DNA of 44,073 bases from a virus: positions 1 to 44,073 of IMG/VR virus record IMGVR_UViG_3300045988_151777; one strand, written 5' to 3'. Numbering within the stretch: position 1 is the stretch's first letter; every line of letters begins with the position of its first letter. Positions 5,370 to 26,289 of this stretch are shown here, piece by piece. Both the position numbers and the translations under genes were made by a program. The notes beneath the pieces are model-generated. The model searched no databases. It saw only the letters and a program-made list of their open reading frames with translations, and was not told the DNA's origin.

Positions 5370-6661
5370 ACAGTTTCCTTCACCTTACTGAAACAGTAAT
5401 CCGCCCACGCCTGCATCAGCTCACGCCGCCGGCGCAGGTACTTATTCCGGTTGTAAGCGCCGTTGTATTTCTTGTCGATCTTGTGGTGCAGCGCCTGTTC
5501 CACCACCAGCGAATCAAAACGCTGATCGTTGTCGTATTCGTCCGATAGTGCCCAGGTGCAGAACGTCCCGCGAGCAGTGCCATGCTGGGTGGGGATAATC
5601 GGATCATCTTTTTTGCCGCGCTCTTTTGTCTGGGCTTTGTCGATCCATATTGGCAACCCTGCAGCCTTTCGGGCTTTATTCGCATCCTTAATTAATGTCG
5701 AGAATATTGACTGGCAGTAATGATTGCCTTTTTCACCCACAAATACCCAACCTTCTTTTTTTATACCAACGCTTTTTAAAATATCAATTGCCCGATCTGA
5801 TAACGGAACAATAAGAGCGCCATTAGATTTTATTTTTAGATCGATGCGCTTAACCCACCATACTTTCTCGTTAAGATCAATGTCTTCCCATTTAGCAAGC
5901 CGCGCCGTCTTTGAACGGGTAGCGGTCAAAATTGAGAATAAAAAGAGTTTTGCACTATCGTTCGGATTCTCGGTTAATTCCTTGATAAAGTCAGGCAAGT
6001 CCTCTGCGTTTACCGCGCCATAATTTTCAGTCTCAATATCGTTCTTTCCCAAGAGGTGCTTTAATGGACCGTTCTTATCGGCCGGGTTAATCCATCGATC
6101 GGTCTCTTCGGCATAAATCCAATCGAAGGTATCTTTGATTGAGCGAAGGCATCGGTTAAAGACAATGGGCTTATCGAGTAGGTTTTTCTGAAGCTGTACC
6201 ATATCCTTCGGGACAATCTGATCGATCTTCATATCACCCAACACAGGGAACACGTGGTTTTTCCAGTTAGACGTAAAGTCCCGATCAGTACCAGTGCCCT
6301 CCGTCCAGTCCCCAACTTCGAGTTTATGTGCTCTATATAGAAGAGCGGCTTCTTTGAACGTCGGGATCTTGGACGCCTTCTCCTGCTGCTTCGCCTCCTC
6401 TTTGGCCGCGGCCTTCTCCTCAAGATGCTTCAAGAAATCGTCTGCGGAGAGTGCCCGAAGTTTTGAGGCTTCCCGCCGGGCAGTGGCTAAATCCATTGTC
6501 GCACCGCCCATGCCGAGTTCAATGCGCTTGCCGGCAATCTGTCGCCGGAAGACCCATGAGCGATACTCACCGCGGACACGGTAATAAAGGCCGACTACCG
6601 ACCCGTCGTTATGGAGACCATCGGGAAGAGAAGCGAGTTTTGCTTGTGTGAGACGCGCCAT
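5366..6661 (-). CDS. int: Tyrosine integrase, P4-type (DUF4102-like arm-binding N-terminus)
   Basis: The N-terminus LTQAKLASLPDGLHNDGSVVGLYYRVR is typical of P4-like integrases. The C-terminus carries HGTARGTF, LHH and a tyrosine-containing segment. AGGAGG lies 8 nt before ATG 6661, and the track start 6715 is less likely. Confidence 0.85.
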   Translation of the reverse strand: MARLTQAKLASLPDGLHNDGSVVGLYYRVRGEYRSWVFRRQIAGKRIELGMGGATMDLATARREASKLRALSADDFLKHLEEKAAAKEEAKQQEKASKIPTFKEAALLYRAHKLEVGDWTEGTGTDRDFTSNWKNHVFPVLGDMKIDQIVPKDMVQLQKNLLDKPIVFNRCLRSIKDTFDWIYAEETDRWINPADKNGPLKHLLGKNDIETENYGAVNAEDLPDFIKELTENPNDSAKLFLFSILTATRSKTARLAKWEDIDLNEKVWWVKRIDLKIKSNGALIVPLSDRAIDILKSVGIKKEGWVFVGEKGNHYCQSIFSTLIKDANKARKAAGLPIWIDKAQTKERGKKDDPIIPTQHGTARGTFCTWALSDEYDNDQRFDSLVVEQALHHKIDKKYNGAYNRNKYLRRRRELMQAWADYCFSKVKETV

Positions 6662-10006: not shown

Positions 10007-10360
10007 TCACTGGATACCCAGATACTTTCTGACTGCAGGAAGCACAATTCCAACCGCCTCCTTGCCAATCATTCCGCCAAGACCAGCCATCGCCCCGCCA
10101 AACTCATAACCAAGTCCATAAGCGTGGCAAGCCATGCAGATACACAACCCCATAATCGCCGACGCCAAAATCGCTGAACAGAAGTCGAGCCAACGGAAAG
10201 GCTCTCCTTTCGACGTCCGATTCAAAAACATTGCCGCCTGTGCAATAGCTGCTACCCCCGCGGAAAAAAGGTAGGGAAAAGTCTCGCTGTGTTCCTGCAT
10301 GGGAATCTCGTTCTCGTTGACTACCGCAAGTAAACCAGACGCGCAAGCCAACAACTGCAC
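10007..10360 (-). CDS. Holin-like multi-TM protein (start uncertain: GTG 10360 or ATG 10300)
   Basis: Three or four hydrophobic helices. It lies immediately upstream of the endolysin. The motif copy overlaps the GTG start. Confidence 0.55.
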   Translation of the reverse strand: MQLLACASGLLAVVNENEIPMQEHSETFPYLFSAGVAAIAQAAMFLNRTSKGEPFRWLDFCSAILASAIMGLCICMACHAYGLGYEFGGAMAGLGGMIGKEAVGIVLPAVRKYLGIQ

Positions 10361-10366
10361 CCCCTC
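10348..10366 (-). promoter_or_regulatory. Conserved late-region motif, copy 5 (GAGGGGGTGCAGTTGTTGG)
   Basis: The 17-mer at 10349-10365 is identical to those at 16318-16334 and 37516-37532. It lies upstream of the lysis cassette. Confidence 0.6.
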
Positions 10367-10444
10367 GGACAGCTTGGAAATAGAAGGTTCCGCTTCGATG
10401 CAGTAAACTGGAACACGTTTCTTCTTTCACCAAAGAAGGTTTTT

Positions 10445-10843
10445 ATGAAAACTTCTTTATGTTTCGCAGCGCTTTTGCTTTCGTCTGCCTTTCTTGCGGG
10501 GTGTCAATCGCCTACAACGATTGTTAACACTGCACCTCAGCAAATCACTCTTGGCACCGTACAAAAATCCATCCATAAGGGGATGACTCAACCCGAAGTT
10601 ATCGCCGAACTCGGGGCCCCCACTATGGTGACTCGCGACAAAGCAGGCATTGAAGTTTGGGTTTACGACAAAGCAAGCACCATTGCCACGACATCAAACG
10701 TTTCAGGCTACGGCACTCTGATTCTCACCGGAGCCTCTGGACACCAATCCGCCAGCGTTGTCACACAAAAAACACTGACTCTGATCCTTAAGTTCAAGGA
10801 TGCCGAACTTTCGGAATACTCTTACCGTTACTCATCCTTCTAA
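10445..10843 (+). CDS. Lipoprotein, BamE/SmpA-OmlA-like (moron)
   Basis: Signal peptide plus lipobox (SAFLAGC). ITLGTVQKSIHKGMTQPEVIAELGAP...VWVY resembles the SmpA/OmlA fold. It is on the opposite strand to the surrounding late genes. Confidence 0.65.
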   Translation: MKTSLCFAALLLSSAFLAGCQSPTTIVNTAPQQITLGTVQKSIHKGMTQPEVIAELGAPTMVTRDKAGIEVWVYDKASTIATTSNVSGYGTLILTGASGHQSASVVTQKTLTLILKFKDAELSEYSYRYSSF

Positions 10844-16316: not shown

Positions 16317-16335
16317 TCAACAACTGCACCCCCTA
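16317..16335 (-). promoter_or_regulatory. Conserved late-region motif, copy 4 (TAGGGGGTGCAGTTGTTGA)
   Basis: Identical 17-mer. It includes the TAG stop of the giant ORF and lies 42 nt upstream of the fibre ATG. Confidence 0.6.
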
Positions 16336-19300
16336 CTCATCGATCTTTCCGGAGAAACCGAACAACGGTGCCAGAACGGCGTCCACGCCCTCGGCCTGGC
16401 CGGATTCGATGGCACGGACGCCCTTGATCGTCCGGTTGATCTGCGTGGACGGTGCACCGGTCAGAGAGCCGGCAATGTCAACGAGGGCTTTCAACCCACG
16501 CCAACTCAAGGGATCAGTGGCCGCCTGCATTGCATTGGCCGTGTTGGCAATCATGCGGGTGCCGGCAGGGCCGTTATAGCCGAACAAAGGTTCGCCGGCG
16601 ATAAGCGACTTGGCCGTGCTGGAGACCTCTCGCAGCCCCAAGAAAAGCCCCAGGTGATATTCGACCACGGCACCCAAAGGTTTACGCAGCCACTGTTTCG
16701 TCCAGTCCTCATCGTCGTCATCATCCGAGTCATGCGCCTGCAGCGCCTCACGGAACAACGACTCAAGTACCGGCATCACGGCACCCATGAAGAGCAACCG
16801 TGCCGCAGCCTTCGCCCGGTCATTCTCGCCCATAGCTTCCACGACACCCATATTGAGCGCCGCGTTCATCCACGAGTAGAAGACCGTGAAGAGTCGCGCC
16901 CCCTGACTCCGTTCAATGGCGGACAGATCAGACACATTACCGGACGACTGCGTATCAATCACCACCTGGTCAGCCATAGCAATCGCCTTGTCCTCGGAAT
17001 TCCCCTCGCGGGTGTAACGCTCATAGGCCGCCTGCCACGCGATGGAATCCACGATATTTTGCATGATGGTCATCATGACGTAGGAGTGATCTTTGAACCA
17101 GTGCTTGCCAGACTCAAGCCGGTTCCGAACCTGCGCGATTTCACGGTTCTGCGTGAGTCCGCGCAGACGCATGGCTTCCGACTTCTTGGTGATGGCTCTA
17201 TGCAACCCCACCGGATCCGAAATGAACTTCCCGACGGCCGTCATCACGGGGGCGATCCCTACGCGCGGGATGACGTACCCTATGCCCGTCAGCTGGACAA
17301 AGGCCGACGTGACACTGAAGCCCATCGTGGCAACGCCAACATTCGCCGCCATGCGGTTGACCCAACTGTCGGCAGAGTCACGGCCGCCTGTAGCAATGTC
17401 CTTGCGCCAGTCTTCGAACTGCTTAGCCACAAGGTAACCATACCGCTCCTTAATAGCCTGACGCAGTCCAGAGTCCCGGCCGTTCACACCGTCCAAAACA
17501 CGCTTGGTTTCGATCAGCCATTCGTGCCAAGCCAGATCATGGATGACATCATTGAAGCCTTCATATAGGGCTGCTAGATCGATTCGAAGCGGCATGTGCA
17601 CGTCACCCTGCGCACGGGACTTGGTGAAGGATCGGCGCGTCGTGGCGGACTGGTAGGCACCCTGCATTTCCTGCCGGACATCGTTGGCGTCGGCGTACTT
17701 GGCCGCGCGGTTCGATCCACGGGGGTCAAACTTCACCGGATAGTAGCCGCCGGACACCTGGATGATTTTCCCTTCGGCCGTCTTCACCATGAAGGGCTGA
17801 TAGTCGATCCACTCAGGTTCCGTGCCGAATACCCGCTTTTCCTTCTCCGCAATAAGCGGACGCAACTCCTCGAATTGCTGCCACACGGCTTCAACGCCCC
17901 TCCAGTCGGCTTCCGTCAACGTAGCGAAAATGGCCTGCAGCGCTTCATCCGTGAATCGACAATCGCCATCCACCAGGCGCTGACGGTTACTGTCGTTGCC
18001 GCAGTTCAATGCCACAGCGATTCTTTGCCCGTGTGTGAGGGGCTTGGAGAACCCCGGGATGATTACCGGGTCTTCATCCTGGCTCTTCTTAAACACCGGG
18101 GCCAGCTTTTCGGCCAATGTCTTCGAGACCTTGGCGCGCATGGAGTTTTCAAACGTCGAACGCTCGTTGGCCGAACGGATGAACAAGTTCCAGAAGAAAC
18201 CGCCCGACTGGTTCTGGTCGAAGATTCGGCACCAGGACTGAATCTTGACGTGGTTCAACAAGAACTGATGCACGTTGTCGCGCCAGCGCTCCCAACGGGT
18301 AAAGGGTACTCGTTCGTTTTCAATGACGTCACGCCCCTGGCGGTCGGCCGCTTCCTTAATGGCCTCCTTGCCCTCCTTCACAATTTCATCAATACGACCC
18401 AGTTCCTCCGCAAGGTTCTGGTTATAGACGTTACGGCCCAGCGTCTCCAGCTGCTTCAACACCGAGAAGAAGTCCTGAGAGTCGTAGCCCGTCATGTCCT
18501 TGGCGTGCTCGTGCGAATCAATGAAGCGTTGCAGTCCTTCAATCGGCGTGCCGGCGTCCTCGACCTCCTTAATGAGTTCCTGCAACTGCGCCGGATCTGC
18601 GGCGAGTTTTCCGAAATCCTCCCGCTCCTTGGCCGTCATGCTCGCCACGCTGTGGGCGTCCAGCAGGGCCAGGATCAGTTTCTTGTAAGCCGGGTGAACG
18701 GTCTTACTCTTCATCGCCCGCTTAGCCATACGCACGCCACGCTGATAACGGTCGAGGGTTTCAAGGGCCGCACGAGCCATTTCGTGGTTAAGCACCTGAC
18801 CGCGCTTCGCTTCAAGGCATGCCCCGAAGTCAGCCTTGCGCATCGCTTGTTCGGCCATGGCGGCACAGCGCCGTTCGGCATTCATGAAAGTCCCCGGTCG
18901 AATGTCCGACAACTTCATGTTGCCGATCTGCTCAACCGCGTATTCGCGGGCGGCCGAGACCATCAGCTGCCGCTTGCCGAGAGCACGCGCCAGGGCATTA
19001 AATTCAGCCGTAATGAAGCGGGAACGGGTTTCGTTATGGGCGGCAAGGTTCGACTGCAACTCGTCGAATGCATCGGGATTCATGCCGCCCTCAATGCGCA
19101 CCTTGTAGGCCACGGACTTGATGGCCTCGGTCTTCGCGTCGTTCATGGACTTCAGTTCGAGTAGATCTCCGATAAGTCCGACGACGTCCGTCGTGCCGGC
19201 GGTATTGGCCAACACTTCAGGAGAGACCCCGCGGCCTTCCGTCACCCACCCGCGATCCATCAGCAACTGTGCCGTTTCCGCATCAATCCCGCAGCGGCTC

Positions 19301-22300
19301 AGCGGCTTGAGTTCAATCGTCATGCGGGACGTCGTGCCGTCCTCGCTCTTGAGGCCGTGCGTCAGCAACGACAACGCCCGGAACCGCGGTTCTTCCAGGA
19401 TTTCGTCGGTGCGCTTGTTCACTTCGTCCCTGCGTTCCCGCAGGATGCGGCGGGCCTCTTTGCGGCGAATGTTGCCGTAGATCCGCAGCACCCCGTGAAC
19501 GGCCTTAGCGATAAGGCCTTCGGCTTCTTGCGTCGCCTCTTCGTTGAGGGCGTTGTAGGCCGCCAGCTCCTCGTCGGTCATCCCCAGGCGCTTGCCGATC
19601 TCGCCGTCGAACAATGCGCGCATACCAAGTTTCTGCTGGGTCTCCATGGCCTGCTGTTCCGTGGCGAACATGAGGTCATAGAGCTTTCGGACTTCCGGGC
19701 TGATCGGGTGCGGTTGCCTTGTGGCCTGCGCGTAAATATCCATCAACCACTTTTTGAAGCGGCCGAAGATCGTCTTCATTTCTGCGTTCGGCGACACACC
19801 TTCGAGCAAGTAGGATTCGAAGCCCTCAGCAAAGAGCTCGTGCATCCCTCGCTGGTCATTGATTGGCATTGCGGCCCACGCACGGACAGCGGCAGCCACT
19901 GTCTTGAGATCATCGGTCACGCCGAGATCAAGCACGCCTTCCTGTTGTCCCCAGCGGAAAAACCCGCCGAGATTCGTGAGGAAGGCTCTCTCCCCGTCTG
20001 TCAACTCGCCGCCGGCCAATACCTTGTCCGCAATATCCTGCGCCAGCATTGTGTCGGCATCCAGCCATGCGTGAGCGGACTCATGCAGGAACGTGGACTT
20101 GTCGGCGCTTTCCATCAGCGTCATTACCCCGCCTTCGCCCGGACGTACGTCGCCGGCGTTGCTGGGCATCATGCTGCCGCGGGTTCCGGATTGTTCCGGC
20201 TGCTCGAGGATGTTGAGAATCTTGAGGGCCGTATCGTCCCAAATCACAGCACAGTTGCCGTCGGGTTCGCTGAAGTACTCAAGCCCCTTGATACCATAAA
20301 GGTTGAGGAGCTCGGAGGCCTCCTTGCTGCCGCCAGCATACGCCGTAAGCCAGCTGTAGACGTCGCGCCCTTCGGTCGAATCCTTGCCGATGAGTTCAAT
20401 CACCTTATTGCGGGCATCCGCTCGCGGGGACGTTGTGCCCTTGTCCAGGTCGTCCATGCCTTCGGCCACCAGGTCGAACGCCAAGTTCTGCAGCGCTTTC
20501 CGGACAACCACCGGCTGGTCAACCATAGCGGCTTCTTCGCTCAGAAGCACATCCGAGTCCGGAATTTCCGTCCGGTAAACGCGCCCCTCCGTGCTGGGCG
20601 TGTATTCGATGCTGTAGTCCTTCGGCTGCTGGTAGATCTTCGCGAGTTCGTTCCGCAGTTTGGACGACGTCGCCTTATCCACTTGGCCGCGTTCCGTGTC
20701 CTCGTTGAGGCGCTTGATGGCCGTCTCGGCCGCGCGCTTCACCTGCGCAGGCTTCGGATGCTTCTGCGTGCCCGGCATCTCCCGCAGCACCCACGTTGCG
20801 GCCAAGTCTTCCATGTCCGCGCTTTCGAGGTTGCGGCTGACGGGCTTCCCGTTCACCGTGTATTCCCCACCGCCGGCCAAGGCATCACGATAGCTTTCGG
20901 CCGTCTTGCGGTTCATGGCGAAGTAAAGGCCATAGCCGTGCTGCTGCGTGCCGGCGCCGGCCCCAATGTGATCCAGTGTGAAGCGGTCGAACTTGAAGGG
21001 AGAACCGTGGTAAGCCGTCTGGGCATACGCACCGGCAATACCGAGCGCAGCCTTTTCCTCGGCCTCGGCAAAGAAGGTGCCGATCTCTTCCGGAGAAGCG
21101 GAATCGAATTCGGTGTCGTCTACAATGCGGCCTTCCGGCGTGTTGTAGGACAGGGCCAGGTAATTCCCTTTGGAAGAGTTTTCAAGGATTCCCAGCTGTG
21201 CCGGCGTCGGCGGCCGCGAGATCGACGCGACTCCGTGAGCGGAATCGATTCGCATTGCACCGGTACGGGCCATGAAGTCATACATCGCCTGAACACCGCT
21301 TGTGTCCATGACTTCCGCGACGTCTGCGTGATCGACCTGACGGCCGTTAACGTCTTGTTCTTCAAGGCCCCAATGGCGTCCGGAGCCGTCCAACATCGTG
21401 CCGTCCGGAAGAATATAAAAGGCCTCGTCAATGTTATCCGTCGTGCCGAAGTTATCCACTGCCTTGCGGAGCAATTCTTCGTCCGGCGTGAAAGCGTTTT
21501 CGGAAGACTGGAAGAAACCGGTAGCCAACGCATTGTCAGCGTCCGGAAAGACTTCATGCACCAAAGCGTCGTCCGCTTCAGTCCACGTAATGTAGGGGAA
21601 GTTGTGCTTGATGCCGTTGCTGGGATCCTGGGCCAGCTTCTGCAGCTGGATCATGATCTTGCCGGGCACCTTGTACGGATCCAGCTTTCGTTCGATCTGC
21701 CGGCCATGTGCCGACGTCACGGCTGCGGCGTTGAGCGCCTGGACGCGACCCTGATACTGCGGCCGCACATTGTCGTGCTGATCCCCAAGAAGGCAAACGG
21801 CACCACCCCGGCCGAAATGGTGGACGATGTAACCGTCAAAGCCGGCCGCCTTGATAAAGTGCTCTGTCCACGTAAAAGCCCAGTCGTCGTTTGAAGACTC
21901 CTTGCGGCCCTTTGCCAACAACCCCAGCGGGTCTTCATCAAGGTCGTAGATATTGTTGAGCCAAATACTGTGCGCTTCGCGGCCAACACCTTCTTCCGGA
22001 ATGATCCCCTTTCCGGTGTCGAGATAGAAGTAGATGCGGGAGTAAACATCGCTGAGCGGCCCGGTCTTAGTGAGGCGTTTCAGTTCTTGGCCCTTCAGAC
22101 CGGTACCGTAGTAGCGAGAGTTGAGCGACGGCCGGTTGACCGCACTCATGTGAATGCCGAGTACTCGAACCGCATTGGGGCGGCCCTTTTCACCGTACTC
22201 AGCCGTAGTCGGTACGTCAGACTCGCGGACTATTCCGCCTTCGAATCTTTGGCCGCTTTCGCCCGGCGATCGTGTTCCGCGAACACCGCCTTCGGCAGAT

Positions 22301-25300
22301 CGTTCGTCCACCGATCGTACACCGCCTGTTCCTGCGGTGTATACCCCTGACTGTCCGAAGCCTCTTGGGCGGCTTGCGATTTTTGCTTTAATCGCTTGTG
22401 CCAGGCGCTTGTCTGTTTCGGACTGAAGATCAGCATCGTACCCAGCGGATGTTTCTTGTCGAACTCCGCCGCTTCTTCCGGTGTCATTTCTCGCATTTGT
22501 CTTTTCCTCTTCGGAGTAGGGCTCAAGGAAACCCGTGTAGGCATCTGAGACGCGATACACCATCTGGTCACCATAGCCTTCAACAATCGAGTTAAGCCCC
22601 GCTTTAATTGCCTCAATGTTCTCGGCGCCAACCGAAAGCATCATCACACCGCCGGCGGTGGACTGCCCCATAATCAGGCGTTCGCCGTTGGAGTCACGGA
22701 TCTGGTCGATATGGTTCCGGTAAAGGTCATCGACCTGTGCTTCGGTGAAGCCGTCCGGCAACTGGATTCGGATGACCTTGCTCGTGAACATTCCCTCGCC
22801 GTTGGTCTGGCTGATAGCCATAACCGAGTCCTGTCGCAGATAGGATGCTAACAGACGTCCGACCTTGACATAGTCTCCACCATCGGCAATACGACAAAGA
22901 ATCGAATAATTTGGGTCACCGAGATAGCCGCCGCGCTGAAGCTCAGGTTCACCAATGTGGGCATGAGTTTGTTCGGCCACACGCTCGAGCAACCACGGGA
23001 CGATTTCCCGAGTCACCGCAAGTTTATCCGCCGGCGACAATTCGTTCCACTGGGCCACGGCTTCCGCGTTGTTCGGATCCGGTGCGGCCTCCATCGTAAG
23101 CACCGGCTCGGGTTCCGGCTGACGGACGTCGTCGTAAAGCGTGACGCCGCTGCGGTCGTAGGTCTCCGTAATCCGGTCATTGAAAGGCGTGTCCTGCCAC
23201 GACAGTTTCGACAAGCCGCCGGCCGCGTCGAAGATCTTCTGTCGGGCCTCATCCGCCGAAATCTTGCCGGCGTCGAACTCCTTCCAAATGTCGTCAACCA
23301 CTGAGCGCAAGACTCGTTTGCGGTTCGGCTCAAAGAGGACTCGCACGGCCTCCCAGGTAATCGACTGTATCTCACGGGGGCTGAGGCCCACGCGTTCGGC
23401 CGCACGGCGGTAGGCTTCAAAGTGAAGCGGGTACGTGCCGTTCTGGCCGGACGTCTTGTTGCCGACGGCGCCAAAGTTGTCCTGCACCGGCTGACTGTTG
23501 GAGCTCTGAATCGTCAGGGTATCCGCACCCACGGCATGCGTGTCAATCGTCGCGGCCTTGGCGTTACTCGGGTCGTAAAGATTGTTGTAGAAGTCGCGTA
23601 CCTTGAACTGCGTACCGATCTTGTCATAGATGTTGTCTACGCTACCGTCCACGATAACCGATAGGGCGTCGGCGATGGACTGCGGGTTAAAGAAGAACGC
23701 CTTCGCCGGCTTCCCCTGACCGCCGGGCACACTCGCCAAACCGCCTACCCCGCCTTCAGGAGTGAGCACGTTGTAAGTGGACGGATTCGTTACGGCATCG
23801 TACGCGCGCACCCACAACGCGGCTCCGCGCATCTGATCGGCCTGAATGAGTTCTTCCAGGGACTTGCCCTTGATCTCGTCGAAGCTGACCTTCTTATCGG
23901 ACTCGCACAGAGTTTTCAACGCCGTCTGCATTTCGGCCGACGGCTTCTCGCGCCGGGCGCTGAAGTAAATATCAAACAAGCGTTCGGCGTTGGTCATGTT
24001 GTTGAACCAGCCGTTCTGGGGGCTGAAGATGGCAATCACGGCCGCCACCTGACGCAAGCGCAGACCGTAGCGCTGAGCCCACACACGGGCTGTCTTGTTG
24101 CCGCCGTCATACCACAACTTAGCGCGTTCACGTTCTGCCGCCGGCATCTTGTCATAAAGCCAAACAAGATTGTCGGCCATAAAGTCAATGATGCGTTCGG
24201 ACGCCTTACCGGCATTCCGGACACGGCCAACGGCACCCTTTACGCCGGGGATGGTTTTCATGGCCGCCACGGCGCGTTCAAAGTAGCGGCTGTTTTTCTT
24301 GGCTTCAGCGAAGTCTGCCCACTGCCGCGCGAACCGCGGGTTCGGGTAGTCCCCCTTCTTCACGGCGGCCTCAGACGGCATAGCCGTGGAAAGCTGCTGT
24401 TGGAACGCCGGAGTTTGCGACTGCTGCCGACGGATCCGTAGATTCATCTTGCCCATGATTTCCTTGGGGCTCAATCCGGTCTGCTTGGCACGGATAGCCA
24501 GCCAAGAAGCCCAGGGACGCGTCTGCAAGTCGGCCACATCTTCAGCCGTGCCGGCGTCGATCAACTGCTTGCGAATAGCGGCAACCTCGGTGTCAATGGC
24601 CTTACGCATCTCGGCGTCGGGCTTCGTGTCCTTCACTATCTTGTCGAAGGCCGCCACGGCTTCCTGTTTGCCGTTCTTCATGAAGTCCTCAGCCTGACGC
24701 GGACTCATGCCGTCGGCATCTACGCGGGACTCATAAAGGAGACTGTTGGCCGCTGCTTCATCCGTCGCTGCCAACTTCACGACGTCAGACACGGGGATAG
24801 CAACGTCGGACTTATTCTGGGCTGCCGTCTCAATGCGGGCCGCGAGTTCCGGAGCGGCCTGGCGAATCTTGTCTGGAACGCCGGCATCCACCAAGTCCTG
24901 AGCAAACGAGAACACGGACTTATCCTGGCCGACGTCGTTGGCCCATTCGGCAATCGTCTGGCCGTCCTTCACCTGTGTCCCCATGGCGGCCACGGCGGCC
25001 GTCACCCTCTGCATATTCTCGCCCAGCACCTTGGCAGCCTGCGCCTGTTGCTGTTGCGCGTTGTAGGCCGCGTTCACTGAAGCGCTCATAGAGACGACTT
25101 CCACCGGTGCAGACGTGAGTTCCCCAATGGCTTCAAAGAGGACGTCGGCCCAGTTGATTTCGTCACCGGCGGCAAGCGAACCGAGCGCTTCGCCGGCGCC
25201 GCCTAAGACACCCTGCAATCCGGCCTGCGTGAGGTGGTTCTCAAGGTTGTAGCCCCACATACCCCCGCGGGACGTCGGCGTTGCAGAGCGGGCCATACCG

Positions 25301-26289
25301 AAGGCTTCCGGAATGCTCTTCACCTTGTCCACGCCGTGCAAGCCGCTTGCCTTCAGAATGCCGGCGGCATCACGCACGGTACGGATGGCGTTACTCGGGT
25401 TGAGGCGGATAGGTGCCGCCAGGGCTGCCACGGCATCGAACGCCCCCACGACGGCCGCGCGCTTCTTCCCCTTTTCGTAGGTCTCGGCCATGTCGTCCGC
25501 CTGCAGGGCCGTACGCATGGCGTCAGGGTTCTGCAGGTCAATCCCCTTTTCCTGCATAGCTTTGATCAGGTAATTGCCCAACTCGTTGTCGTAGGAGCCC
25601 TTAAACATCGTCGCCATCTGGACAGCACGGGCGGCCGACGTCAGGCGCGCCGCACCCAACAAACCGCCGCCGGCGGCCGACAAAGCCATGTAGGGGGCAA
25701 TGGCACCAAGCGAAGACGTGCCGAGATACAAGGCCGAGCTCAACGGATCCGCGGCCATCTCAGTCAAGGCCGTTCCGAGCCCGCTCCAAAAACCCTTGCC
25801 CTTGGCCTTCTGGGATGCGTTCTGAACCGCCAAGGGCGTTACATACTCCTTGTCCTTCTTTGCTAAATCTGCGTACTCGTAGATTGCCTTGTCGCGCGCG
25901 GCCGCCTGCTTTTCCTTGTAGTCCCGGTTCGCCTGCGTATCGCGAGAAAGCAGTTCCTTCACGGACTCGTCTTCGTCATCATCCACCAACGCAGAAAGCC
26001 CGGCCTGAGCTGCCTGCTCAGCCTCATAGGCTGCCGTCGCCGCACGGGACTTCTGCAGCCCGTGGTAGCCGCCTTCAAGGCCGTTCATCAGGCGCTCCGT
26101 GACGCTCATCTGCTCCCACGTCGGCACCTCGCCCTGCGGGTTCGGAGAGCGCAGCACCGCTTTGGCCGTGGCCGGGGTATCGGTAAAACGCATCGTCGGC
26201 AACTGTCCGGCCGGCGTCACAGCCTGAGACGCACGCAGCCCATCGTCTTCGGCTTCCATATCGGAAAGAATCTTTGCGTAATCAGTCAT
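16333..26289 (-). CDS. Giant internal virion (ejected) protein, gp16-position, polyvalent multi-domain (3,318 aa)
   Basis: Uninterrupted 9,957-nt ORF between gp15-like and fibre genes. HESAH zincin motif at aa 2069-2073 (nt 20071-20085). AYHGSPFKFDRF...HGYGLYFA block at aa 1759-1791. Hydrophobic C-terminal helices. Confidence 0.8.
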   Translation of the reverse strand: MTDYAKILSDMEAEDDGLRASQAVTPAGQLPTMRFTDTPATAKAVLRSPNPQGEVPTWEQMSVTERLMNGLEGGYHGLQKSRAATAAYEAEQAAQAGLSALVDDDEDESVKELLSRDTQANRDYKEKQAAARDKAIYEYADLAKKDKEYVTPLAVQNASQKAKGKGFWSGLGTALTEMAADPLSSALYLGTSSLGAIAPYMALSAAGGGLLGAARLTSAARAVQMATMFKGSYDNELGNYLIKAMQEKGIDLQNPDAMRTALQADDMAETYEKGKKRAAVVGAFDAVAALAAPIRLNPSNAIRTVRDAAGILKASGLHGVDKVKSIPEAFGMARSATPTSRGGMWGYNLENHLTQAGLQGVLGGAGEALGSLAAGDEINWADVLFEAIGELTSAPVEVVSMSASVNAAYNAQQQQAQAAKVLGENMQRVTAAVAAMGTQVKDGQTIAEWANDVGQDKSVFSFAQDLVDAGVPDKIRQAAPELAARIETAAQNKSDVAIPVSDVVKLAATDEAAANSLLYESRVDADGMSPRQAEDFMKNGKQEAVAAFDKIVKDTKPDAEMRKAIDTEVAAIRKQLIDAGTAEDVADLQTRPWASWLAIRAKQTGLSPKEIMGKMNLRIRRQQSQTPAFQQQLSTAMPSEAAVKKGDYPNPRFARQWADFAEAKKNSRYFERAVAAMKTIPGVKGAVGRVRNAGKASERIIDFMADNLVWLYDKMPAAERERAKLWYDGGNKTARVWAQRYGLRLRQVAAVIAIFSPQNGWFNNMTNAERLFDIYFSARREKPSAEMQTALKTLCESDKKVSFDEIKGKSLEELIQADQMRGAALWVRAYDAVTNPSTYNVLTPEGGVGGLASVPGGQGKPAKAFFFNPQSIADALSVIVDGSVDNIYDKIGTQFKVRDFYNNLYDPSNAKAATIDTHAVGADTLTIQSSNSQPVQDNFGAVGNKTSGQNGTYPLHFEAYRRAAERVGLSPREIQSITWEAVRVLFEPNRKRVLRSVVDDIWKEFDAGKISADEARQKIFDAAGGLSKLSWQDTPFNDRITETYDRSGVTLYDDVRQPEPEPVLTMEAAPDPNNAEAVAQWNELSPADKLAVTREIVPWLLERVAEQTHAHIGEPELQRGGYLGDPNYSILCRIADGGDYVKVGRLLASYLRQDSVMAISQTNGEGMFTSKVIRIQLPDGFTEAQVDDLYRNHIDQIRDSNGERLIMGQSTAGGVMMLSVGAENIEAIKAGLNSIVEGYGDQMVYRVSDAYTGFLEPYSEEEKTNARNDTGRSGGVRQETSAGYDADLQSETDKRLAQAIKAKIASRPRGFGQSGVYTAGTGGVRSVDERSAEGGVRGTRSPGESGQRFEGGIVRESDVPTTAEYGEKGRPNAVRVLGIHMSAVNRPSLNSRYYGTGLKGQELKRLTKTGPLSDVYSRIYFYLDTGKGIIPEEGVGREAHSIWLNNIYDLDEDPLGLLAKGRKESSNDDWAFTWTEHFIKAAGFDGYIVHHFGRGGAVCLLGDQHDNVRPQYQGRVQALNAAAVTSAHGRQIERKLDPYKVPGKIMIQLQKLAQDPSNGIKHNFPYITWTEADDALVHEVFPDADNALATGFFQSSENAFTPDEELLRKAVDNFGTTDNIDEAFYILPDGTMLDGSGRHWGLEEQDVNGRQVDHADVAEVMDTSGVQAMYDFMARTGAMRIDSAHGVASISRPPTPAQLGILENSSKGNYLALSYNTPEGRIVDDTEFDSASPEEIGTFFAEAEEKAALGIAGAYAQTAYHGSPFKFDRFTLDHIGAGAGTQQHGYGLYFAMNRKTAESYRDALAGGGEYTVNGKPVSRNLESADMEDLAATWVLREMPGTQKHPKPAQVKRAAETAIKRLNEDTERGQVDKATSSKLRNELAKIYQQPKDYSIEYTPSTEGRVYRTEIPDSDVLLSEEAAMVDQPVVVRKALQNLAFDLVAEGMDDLDKGTTSPRADARNKVIELIGKDSTEGRDVYSWLTAYAGGSKEASELLNLYGIKGLEYFSEPDGNCAVIWDDTALKILNILEQPEQSGTRGSMMPSNAGDVRPGEGGVMTLMESADKSTFLHESAHAWLDADTMLAQDIADKVLAGGELTDGERAFLTNLGGFFRWGQQEGVLDLGVTDDLKTVAAAVRAWAAMPINDQRGMHELFAEGFESYLLEGVSPNAEMKTIFGRFKKWLMDIYAQATRQPHPISPEVRKLYDLMFATEQQAMETQQKLGMRALFDGEIGKRLGMTDEELAAYNALNEEATQEAEGLIAKAVHGVLRIYGNIRRKEARRILRERRDEVNKRTDEILEEPRFRALSLLTHGLKSEDGTTSRMTIELKPLSRCGIDAETAQLLMDRGWVTEGRGVSPEVLANTAGTTDVVGLIGDLLELKSMNDAKTEAIKSVAYKVRIEGGMNPDAFDELQSNLAAHNETRSRFITAEFNALARALGKRQLMVSAAREYAVEQIGNMKLSDIRPGTFMNAERRCAAMAEQAMRKADFGACLEAKRGQVLNHEMARAALETLDRYQRGVRMAKRAMKSKTVHPAYKKLILALLDAHSVASMTAKEREDFGKLAADPAQLQELIKEVEDAGTPIEGLQRFIDSHEHAKDMTGYDSQDFFSVLKQLETLGRNVYNQNLAEELGRIDEIVKEGKEAIKEAADRQGRDVIENERVPFTRWERWRDNVHQFLLNHVKIQSWCRIFDQNQSGGFFWNLFIRSANERSTFENSMRAKVSKTLAEKLAPVFKKSQDEDPVIIPGFSKPLTHGQRIAVALNCGNDSNRQRLVDGDCRFTDEALQAIFATLTEADWRGVEAVWQQFEELRPLIAEKEKRVFGTEPEWIDYQPFMVKTAEGKIIQVSGGYYPVKFDPRGSNRAAKYADANDVRQEMQGAYQSATTRRSFTKSRAQGDVHMPLRIDLAALYEGFNDVIHDLAWHEWLIETKRVLDGVNGRDSGLRQAIKERYGYLVAKQFEDWRKDIATGGRDSADSWVNRMAANVGVATMGFSVTSAFVQLTGIGYVIPRVGIAPVMTAVGKFISDPVGLHRAITKKSEAMRLRGLTQNREIAQVRNRLESGKHWFKDHSYVMMTIMQNIVDSIAWQAAYERYTREGNSEDKAIAMADQVVIDTQSSGNVSDLSAIERSQGARLFTVFYSWMNAALNMGVVEAMGENDRAKAAARLLFMGAVMPVLESLFREALQAHDSDDDDDEDWTKQWLRKPLGAVVEYHLGLFLGLREVSSTAKSLIAGEPLFGYNGPAGTRMIANTANAMQAATDPLSWRGLKALVDIAGSLTGAPSTQINRTIKGVRAIESGQAEGVDAVLAPLFGFSGKIDE
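22230..22496 (-). CDS. Embedded alternate-frame ORF (88 aa) inside the giant ORF
   Basis: GAGGA lies 8 nt before ATG 22496, and a second ATG is at 22487. Hand-counted GC3 is about 64 percent here, against about 42 percent for the giant frame over the same bases. The K/E/Q-rich sequence looks protein-like, while the giant frame reads G/R/S-rich. Confidence 0.45.
   Translation of the reverse strand: MREMTPEEAAEFDKKHPLGTMLIFSPKQTSAWHKRLKQKSQAAQEASDSQGYTPQEQAVYDRWTNDLPKAVFAEHDRRAKAAKDSKAE

Follow-up and report, generated by a model that had tools for sequence, protein, structure and literature searches.

A probable small gene nested out of frame in the linker of a giant virion-module protein of a T7-like podophage

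Phages have several described ways of drawing two polypeptides from overlapping frames, and these form the background to the locus that we describe here. In Rz/Rz1-type embedded genes, such as lambda Rz1 inside Rz and T7 18.7 inside 18.5, a small +1-frame gene with its own ribosome-binding site and start codon is wholly contained in a larger phage gene, and both products come from one late transcript. In the overprinted genes of small viruses (phiX174 E in D, and B and K in A/C), both frames are selected and synonymous variation is suppressed in the overlap, with one frame using genome-typical codons and the other being compositionally skewed and probably encoding a disordered peptide. T7 10A/10B and lambda G/GT are programmed frameshift pairs in phage structural genes. 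The polyvalent proteins, finally, are multi-module giants encoded among virion genes (Iyer et al. 2017, PMC5512222); neither 'overlapping' nor 'frameshift' appears as a term in the main text of that work. Our subject is a 267-base overlap in a viral genome of 44,073 nucleotides (IMG/VR record IMGVR_UViG_3300045988_151777, positions 1 to 44,073, hereafter the window), where the inter-domain linker of a giant protein and an 88-residue protein are encoded one base out of step. The evidence set out below suggests that this segment, 22496-22230, is probably dual-coding, and that the nested open reading frame (ORF) is a real small gene expressed by internal initiation.

The nested ORF lies wholly within the giant ORF on the same strand and, as in Rz/Rz1, it is in the +1 frame with its own Shine-Dalgarno (SD)-like site and start codon, such that both products would come from one late transcript. 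The locus is unlike Rz/Rz1 in that the host gene, which occupies the gp16 position, encodes a virion or ejection protein and not a lysis protein. As an outer-membrane lipoprotein, Rz1 carries a signal sequence and a lipobox cysteine, whereas the nested protein has no cysteine and a longest hydrophobic run of 4 residues, which argues that it is neither a spanin nor a lipoprotein; its locus, moreover, sits in the virion module between the internal virion protein and the tail fiber. No sequence relationship to Rz1 is evident, though no direct comparison was made. The likeness to small-virus overprinting lies in the apparent selection on both frames, the suppressed synonymous variation and the division between a codon-typical and a skewed frame, but the genome here is that of a ~40-kb-class double-stranded DNA podophage under no obvious genome-size pressure. 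Contrary to the usual overprinting arrangement, the frame with typical codons is the small nested one; if the codon-usage criterion applies, the giant linker would be the novel reading. With T7 10A/10B and lambda G/GT the locus shares two polypeptides from overlapping frames of a virion-module gene, and it differs from them in having no slippery site or stimulatory structure, a conserved ATG and SD of its own, and free-standing copies of the ORF. The giant gene itself resembles those for polyvalent proteins as a multi-module giant among virion genes that contains an HExxH motif, has relatives bearing MuF_C, ART-PolyVal, LPD3 and ddrB-ParB, and exchanges the modules downstream of the linker between relatives. 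An out-of-frame nested phage gene with its own ribosome-binding site is thus already known, and the linker of a giant polyvalent-type internal-virion protein is a new setting for one.

The frame signal in this segment is real and far above chance. With a codon table trained on other genes only, the giant frame is beaten within the 9,957-nt gene at 22539-22150 and nowhere else. Over the 88-codon span the +1 frame scores 0.361 bits per codon (codon-usage log-odds), higher than in any other +1 window of the gene (mean -0.647, standard deviation (sd) 0.23), and the giant frame scores -0.150, which falls at the 0.06th percentile of its own distribution (mean 0.434, sd 0.137). The GC fractions at the first, second and third codon positions (GC1/2/3) of the giant frame are 0.64/0.60/0.46 in 22521-22252 versus 0.62/0.43/0.72 in the whole gene, while those of the +1 frame over the same bases are 0.60/0.46/0.64; since the latter resemble the whole gene, the normal coding pattern sits in the +1 frame. 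The giant-frame peptide over the overlap is 42% glycine, arginine and serine, compared with 21% in the entire protein. An earlier reading of the window, made from sequence only, had described this G/R/S-rich string and the genome-typical codons of the alternate frame, and its hand-counted GC3 values were about 42% and about 64% for the giant and alternate frames, where those computed here are 0.46 and 0.64. It had also proposed that codon-usage and GC3 profiles without a frame preference would count against the embedded ORF; the profiles show a clear preference for it. The giant ORF, the 88-aa ORF and its translation, the GAGGA, the second ATG, the A4 run and the TGA named in that reading were all recovered at their positions (Table 1).

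Table 1. Features of the nested ORF, of the giant gene that contains it and of the positional counterparts in distant podophages.
Feature	Position	Strand	Description
Giant ORF	26289..16333	minus	3318 aa; T7-gp16 position; hosts the nested ORF
Nested +1-frame ORF	22496..22230	minus	88 aa + TAG; translation MREMTPEEAAEFDKKHPLGTMLIFSPKQTS...AKAAKDSKAE
Start and stop of nested ORF	ATG 22496-22494; TAG 22232-22230	minus	+1 relative to giant ORF 26289-16333
SD-like GAGGA	22509-22505	minus	8 nt 5' of ATG 22496; giant frame reads E-E-E-K codons
A4 run	22505-22502	minus	
Start region ATG-CGA-GAA-ATG	22496..22485	minus	two in-frame ATGs, 22496 and 22487 (22487-22485)
TGA in third frame	22486-22484	minus	
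Conserved core of small protein, TPEEAAEFDKKHPLGTMLIFSPKQTS	22484..22407	minus	giant-frame reading of the same bases, DTGRSGGVRQETSAGYDADLQSETDK
Giant-frame segment GYDADLQSETDKRLAQAIKAKIA	22443..22375	minus	hydrophobic/amphipathic periodicity D.R[LVI]..AI.A[KR][IL]
Variable tail cassette	22370..22255	minus	nested ORF tail + G-rich giant linker; mosaic breakpoint zone
Domain X of giant protein	22803..22495	minus	aa 1163-1265, NGEGMFTSKVIRIQLPDGFTEAQVDDLY...DAYTGFLEPYSEEEKTN
Peptides of the overlap			giant-frame linker QETSAGYDADLQSETDK; nested-frame tryptic EMTPEEAAEFDK and HPLGTMLIFSPK
ctQRb9 +1 ORF			70 aa; start MTMAVKEMTPQEVKDWLGAGIVMPGPKQ..; directly after domain X
ctEw122 +1 ORF			80 aa; start MPVRKATQQETAAWLGSGIVMQGPKR..; directly after domain X
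zth2-2 +1 ORF			96 aa; start ..GHPLKDGLIVFGQKRP..; directly after domain X

The same two-frame layout recurs in related contigs, which we designate by L numbers (and their proteins by P numbers). Relatives from the same sample (IMG/VR 3300045988) are 88-97% identical to the window, and they have open giant frames of 3325 (L002/L003), 3714 (L004) and 3331 aa (L005/L006), each with a nested ORF that starts at ATG. An open giant frame with a nested ATG ORF is likewise present in contigs from other datasets, namely L027 (a SPAdes contig of a metagenome-assembled genome labeled Anaerovoracaceae, >1638 aa), L001 (Logan SRR6824180), L017 (JGI 3300037400) and L019 (ENA ERZ27237440). Every phage-type copy has both frames open. 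HMMER, run in full against 1.84 billion representative proteins with the 88-aa ORF as query, yielded eight short proteins (56-144 aa) with a common N-terminal motif, and 18 distinct DNA copies could be aligned in register, with a core of 29 codons; length differences close to the start are 0, 3, 6 or 9 nt, all multiples of three. Among GenBank phages, neither blastn with the DNA nor tblastn with the 88-aa ORF gave a match, and tblastn with the small-protein motif found none among plasmids. The small ORF is called as a protein only on fragmentary or decayed contigs; elsewhere gene callers report the giant ORF only, such that the nested gene is invisible in the annotation of this phage group.

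Substitution patterns in the aligned copies indicate that the nested frame is under purifying selection. Across the 29-codon core of the 18 copies the mean pairwise difference at nested positions 1/2/3 is 0.253/0.228/0.414, and over nested codons 1-24 it is 0.22/0.17/0.38, making the third position of the giant frame the least variable in the core. In the bacterial copy L008a the giant frame is broken by TGA and TAG, and of its 15 core differences from the window 11 are silent in the nested frame alone, against an expectation of ~22% under random mutation. Between L017 and L023, the latter with a broken giant frame, 17 differences are nested-synonymous and 8 giant-synonymous.

The initiation signals are conserved in parallel. 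All 18/18 distinct copies have the first ATG and 17/18 have the second, and the first persists even when CAT (H) or TAT (Y) replaces AAT (N) in the giant frame, which places the constraint on xAT-G and not on the asparagine. By eye, a purine-rich SD-like run lies ~4-10 nt 5' of the first ATG in most of the 18 copies. Whereas the predicted folding energy averages -12.6 kcal/mol (sd 3.8) over the gene, that of a 50-nt window centered on the ATG is -3.3 kcal/mol, which puts it among the least-structured 0.4% of the gene; the corresponding ranks are 0.7% in L004, 1.5% in L027 and 0.3% in L019, but only 7-24% in L001, L017 and L014.

The giant frame appears to be selected as well. When eight different nested proteins were synonymously recoded following the codon usage of the phage itself, only 0.2-5.5% of trials left the -1 frame open, whereas the actual -1 (giant) frame is open in 8/8, unrelated tails included; this points to selection on the giant frame to stay open, against stops. 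Nested-frame synonymous divergence is low in the core relative to the adjacent single-coding domain, at 0.23 versus 0.57 between the window and L001 (p=0.005) and 0.11 versus 0.49 between L001 and L004 (p=0.0005), and the window and L001 share a ~68-nt block at 100% identity, where the background is ~75%. The periodicity of the giant-frame segment listed in Table 1 is kept in relatives (13 copies, by eye), and AlphaFold2 (AF2) predicts a helix there with low confidence; at a predicted local distance difference test (pLDDT) score of 43, this model is too poor to prove a disordered linker. Over nested codons 25-40 the codon positions vary about equally (0.53/0.56/0.58), and the nested frame is low-complexity K/Q/S. 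Dominance thus appears to alternate between the two frames along the overlap.

Copies of the small ORF also occur in bacterial surroundings. The small ORF is intact in copies in which the giant frame is broken (L008a, L008b, L020 and L023); in L020 the upstream gene stops at a TAG directly before the SD and ATG, and L021-L026 hold decayed remnants of polyvalent genes in bacterial contexts with the small ORF intact. In L008 (1600-3460; also L009-L013) a ~950-nt cassette is repeated twice near MFS, alanine racemase and ABC genes, each unit comprising an unrelated 62-aa ORF, a terminator-like hairpin, a conserved ~130-nt leader and a stand-alone small ORF. In the second of these copies, P0007 (144 aa, on 12 contigs), a 2-nt deletion fuses the small ORF to the former giant frame. 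Rfam gave only sub-threshold noise for the leader, and the idea that the 62-aa ORF (RFIFSPYF motif) is a paralogue of the small ORF was rejected, as BLASTP gives no alignment. A tandem duplication of a 608-nt unit (~86-92% identical) with a short domain X, the domain of the giant protein that ends at the linker, and the small ORF is found at 667-1690 of L021. In L007 (1055-3851) a decayed domain X and the small ORF (P0010) lie 1.7 kb downstream of RNase_T and a short RVT_1 reverse-transcriptase gene; this contig is nanopore-derived ('polypolish') and its gyrB is split in two, making its frame junctions unreliable. These arrangements indicate that the small ORF can persist alone. Since giant-frame remnants are recognizable beside them, the bacterial copies derive from the embedded state, and they are therefore uninformative on which frame is older.

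A further copy is found within a Csx12(Cas9)-Cas1-Cas2-Cas4 locus of clustered regularly interspaced short palindromic repeats (CRISPR), type II-B-like and with the 37-nt repeat GTTTCAGTAGCTGAGTTTATTACTGTAAGATTTCAAC, in L014 (5671-6364; also L015 and L016). Between the first and second repeats of the L014 array, in place of a ~35-nt spacer, stands a 620-nt unit that is ~70% identical to window 22791-22411 and spans domain X from its methionine, the entire nested ORF (P0006, 79 aa) and the beginning of the next domain. The unit is common to the three arrays, whose other spacers differ, and L015 has an extra spacer between the unit and the spacer that it shares with L016, which suggests that new spacers enter just after the 620-nt unit.

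Possible counterparts exist in more distant phages. A tblastn search with giant-protein residues 1031-1265 found three GenBank podophages at ~30% identity (ctQRb9, ctEw122 and zth2-2), each of which has, directly after domain X, a +1-frame ORF with an ATG, an SD-like run and coding-like GC1/2/3. A hidden Markov model (HMM) of the 18 copies ranks these three ORFs top among 177 six-frame segments. We regard these positional counterparts as supportive, not as proof. The 'circular' record of zth2-2 (OL791268, L039+L038), which carries no annotation, repeats ~130 nt of the giant gene (..DSMMVVSEQQVVGTDPVGAISIDLPEGYGEKEVRALYDRLW..) at both ends, probably an untrimmed terminal overlap.

We propose that the giant frame reads the segment as a G/R/S-rich linker from a conserved upstream module, ending in domain X, to exchangeable downstream cargo modules, and that the +1 frame encodes an independent small protein. 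Ribosomes would make it by internal initiation on the late mRNA that also carries the giant frame, using the SD and ATG conserved within an unstructured, purine-rich stretch. The sequence-only reading had listed an overprinted gene in a disordered linker as one of three explanations, and it is this one that gains from the selection on the nested frame, the conserved ATG and SD, the unstructured start, the survival of the ORF where the giant frame is broken, and the counterpart in distant phages. Several observations weigh against our interpretation, however, and temper it. Translation of the small protein is argued from sequence evidence. Among the seven strictly phage-type copies the position-wise differences are 0.183/0.167/0.276, with a borderline permutation p of about 0.055, and in some phage pairs giant-synonymous differences match or outnumber nested-synonymous ones (11 versus 6 for L004-L027; 13 versus 9 for the window and L019). 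All such pairwise counts are phylogenetically non-independent, and the bacterial copies were found through a search for this very ORF, so that their intactness is partly ascertainment. The distant podophage ORFs score only 9.7, 9.3 and 3.0 bits, below significance by sequence alone, and hhalign gives P=6e-4 with a probability of 28%. The small protein itself has no match in Pfam, PHROG, NCBIfam, PDB sequences or, by Foldseek with the AF2 model, PDB folds; that model consists of only three helices, with a pLDDT of 71 and a predicted template modeling (pTM) score of 0.30.

What is conserved in the small protein is the N-terminal ~30 residues only, M..(E)MTPEE.AEF.KKHP(L/F).T..IF; total length ranges from 56 to 128 aa in relatives, and the tails vary. 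The window and L005 are identical to ~22370, then carry unrelated segments of equal length, and are ~75% identical from ~22255, the giant-frame wobble pattern resuming right after the nested stop, from ~22225. Homology of L001, L019 and L027 to the window stops at 22356-22381, which means that the overlap spans the point where a conserved upstream module gives way to exchangeable cargo. We propose that function resides in the N-terminal ~30 residues of the small protein and that the tail is exchanged along with the downstream cargo. As to the role, our guess, offered with low confidence, would be that the small protein is a partner of the ejected giant protein or an accessory factor made alongside it. 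In L004 (~10170-10480) the nested frame is stopped and an ATG follows one codon later (..KKE*AMTGRW..), opening a second protein-like ORF of ~95 aa that is similar in its C-terminal part (EEEYIRANNRICEEVYRSVLE) to the tail of the L014 copy; over this second ORF the giant frame is a long Gly-rich string, that is, a longer linker.

The overprinting literature uses codon usage to tell the ancestral from the novel frame (PMC3494269, PMC8227390), and on that criterion, the only basis for the claim, we infer that the nested frame is the older and that the giant linker is an out-of-frame read-through. Combining this direction with the persistence of the ORF in bacteria gives a reading that we offer only as a tentative possibility: the small ORF would be older and autonomous, it would have been swallowed by read-through of the giant gene, and its ~30-aa N-terminal motif would be a self-sufficient module that bacteria repeatedly retain. 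If this were true, intervening genes could be swallowed intact as polyvalent or ejected giant proteins grow, and the dual-coded boundary would double as a recombination joint for swaps of cargo modules. The stand-alone genes and the 620-nt phage-derived CRISPR 'giant spacer' would then suggest a role in phage-host conflict, for example as a decoy or an inhibitor of the injected protein.

That the nested ORF is instead a relic or by-product, whether a small gene overrun by gene fusion or the DNA of a module-exchange boundary that happens to leave a frame open, neither expressed nor needed in the phage any longer and with only the giant frame mattering, we consider unlikely. The segment does lie exactly at a module boundary, given where the polyvalent-gene homology ends and how mosaic the close relatives are; nucleotide conservation of the core exceeds that of the flanks, as it would in a recombination 'linker', and some phage pairs have no nested-synonymous excess. 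Yet the giant-frame third position is the least variable in the core even among phage-type copies, the opposite of what giant-only coding would leave, and the ORF, ATG and SD are kept with wholly different tails (window, L005, L004, L001 and L027) and probably also in phages that are ~30% identical in the flanks. The unusually unstructured start region in several lineages, and the decay of the giant frame in L008a beside an intact nested frame with mostly synonymous change, likewise speak against a by-product.

Programmed +1 frameshifting, a second explanation of the sequence-only reading, found no positive support and seems to us quite improbable. Some ribosomes would slip shortly before 22496 and stop at TAG 22230, giving a ~1,350-aa isoform that lacks the cargo and consists of a gp16-sized core and the conserved peptide, beside the 3,318-aa cargo-bearing one, in a ratio set as in T7 10A/10B or lambda G/GT, and such short/long isoform logic would be attractive for a giant protein packaged in the capsid. 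The window's +1 frame is open from ~22640 to 22230, AGA codons occur in the giant frame where the overlap begins, and an SD-like element lies immediately upstream; such elements stimulate frameshifting in prfB and dnaX. In P0010 of L007, moreover, the end of domain X is in frame with the small-protein motif, though in a contig with split genes this junction is probably error or decay. Against frameshifting, the 18-copy alignment contains no conserved slippery, hungry-codon or shift-prone site, and in the closest phage relatives a +1-frame stop precedes the ATG by 10-11 codons, in more distant ones by 15-24, which leaves almost no space for a common shift site. RNAalifold gives -8.09 kcal/mol (folding -7.9, covariation -0.16) with 1/13 pairs compensatory, hence no covarying structure, and the nested region has no Rfam match. 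Frameshifting would also leave unexplained the conservation of the ATG in all copies and the stand-alone ATG copies (L008a, L020 and L023). Internal initiation is therefore favored over frameshifting. A scan for sigma-70 promoters and terminators revealed nothing convincing. A double-frameshift 'detour', in which the giant protein would borrow the nested peptide and return to its own frame, was prompted by the joined frames of P0010 and P0007 and was rejected, because P0010 comes from an error-prone nanopore contig and P0007 from a 2-nt deletion in a decayed bacterial copy, and also because the nested-frame codon signal in the window extends to the ORF's own stop.

The remaining explanation of the sequence-only reading, two compensating homopolymer indels in the assembly that hide a ~1,270-aa gene and a separate ~2,050-aa gene, is arithmetically sound (with one more A in 22502-22505 the upstream part would terminate at TGA 22486-22484, and with one more G near 22236 the small ORF would run on into the downstream part) but highly improbable and rejected here, because both frames recur open in the same-sample contigs and in four unrelated datasets from different assembly pipelines, indels between copies are multiples of three, an open giant frame across unrelated tails is improbable by chance, A4 and G2 runs are not error-prone in short-read assemblies, and the giant frame is continuous in phage-type relatives, not split at the linker as that explanation had led one to look for.

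A nested gene expressed by internal initiation would add a conserved, previously undescribed small-protein family to the virion/ejection module of T7-like podophages with giant polyvalent proteins. It would also mean that a junk-looking, low-complexity linker can be the shadow of another gene, which bears on how disorder, protease sites and module boundaries are read from such linkers. If the direction suggested by codon usage holds, a multidomain effector would have grown by out-of-frame read-through of a neighboring gene. Two AAT to AAC changes, silent in the giant frame, would remove both start codons of the small gene.

The minus strand of the window carries a structural module of T7-like order, given by PHROG matches as terminase (TerL), portal, protease/scaffold, major capsid protein, tail tubular A/B, internal virion protein, a 712-aa protein, the giant gene and the tail fiber, the last with a T7-gp17-type N-terminus. 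Because its neighbors follow T7 gene order, the giant gene is placed at the gp16 position; the earlier placing of a gp16-sized gene here is thus supported by synteny, as the giant gene is the last internal-core gene before the tail fiber, and no gp16-type or other internal-virion family is among the PHROG, Pfam and NCBIfam matches of the giant protein. Those matches include DUF7178 at aa 699-795 (above threshold) and PHROG 9880 at aa 2052-3304. No polyvalent Pfam model is above threshold in the giant protein, ART-PolyVal reaching 18.3 bits near aa 1759-1803, below its cut-off of 31.2. The polyvalent type (PMC5512222) is tentatively assigned because its relatives carry the corresponding domains, MuF_C in P0001 at 72.7 bits (above cut-off) and LPD3 and ddrB-ParB in L019 among them. 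In L019 these last two reside in a minus-strand 1718-aa gene, against which a plus-strand polyvalent fragment abuts at ~6300-6330, stopping right after its HExxH (STFMHESAH); this junction may be either an inversion or a chimeric assembly. The L019 linker leads directly into the HExxH module, while in the window HExxH lies ~700 aa further along.

Domain X precedes the nested ORF in most copies and survives only as vestiges in L008, L023 and L017. AF2 predicts a beta-alpha-beta-beta-alpha-beta arrangement for it, with low confidence (pLDDT 55-69). It has no Pfam or PDB sequence match, a word-indexed protein search found nothing, and an IMG/VR scan with its profile returned only the five contigs known already; a word-indexed search with 500 aa around the junction found P0001 as the sole relative. 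The giant gene contains a second, longer +1 ORF (23013-23474, minus strand, 153 aa, TTG start), which scores ~-0.3 to -0.6 bits per codon, an ordinary out-of-frame level for the region scanned, went unflagged by the frame scan and is most likely spurious. Opposite the giant gene, plus-strand ORFs with GTG starts run at 19357-21894 (845 aa), 17596-19164 (522 aa) and 16654-17568 (304 aa), and these long antisense frames are probably shadow ORFs of a GC3-rich gene.

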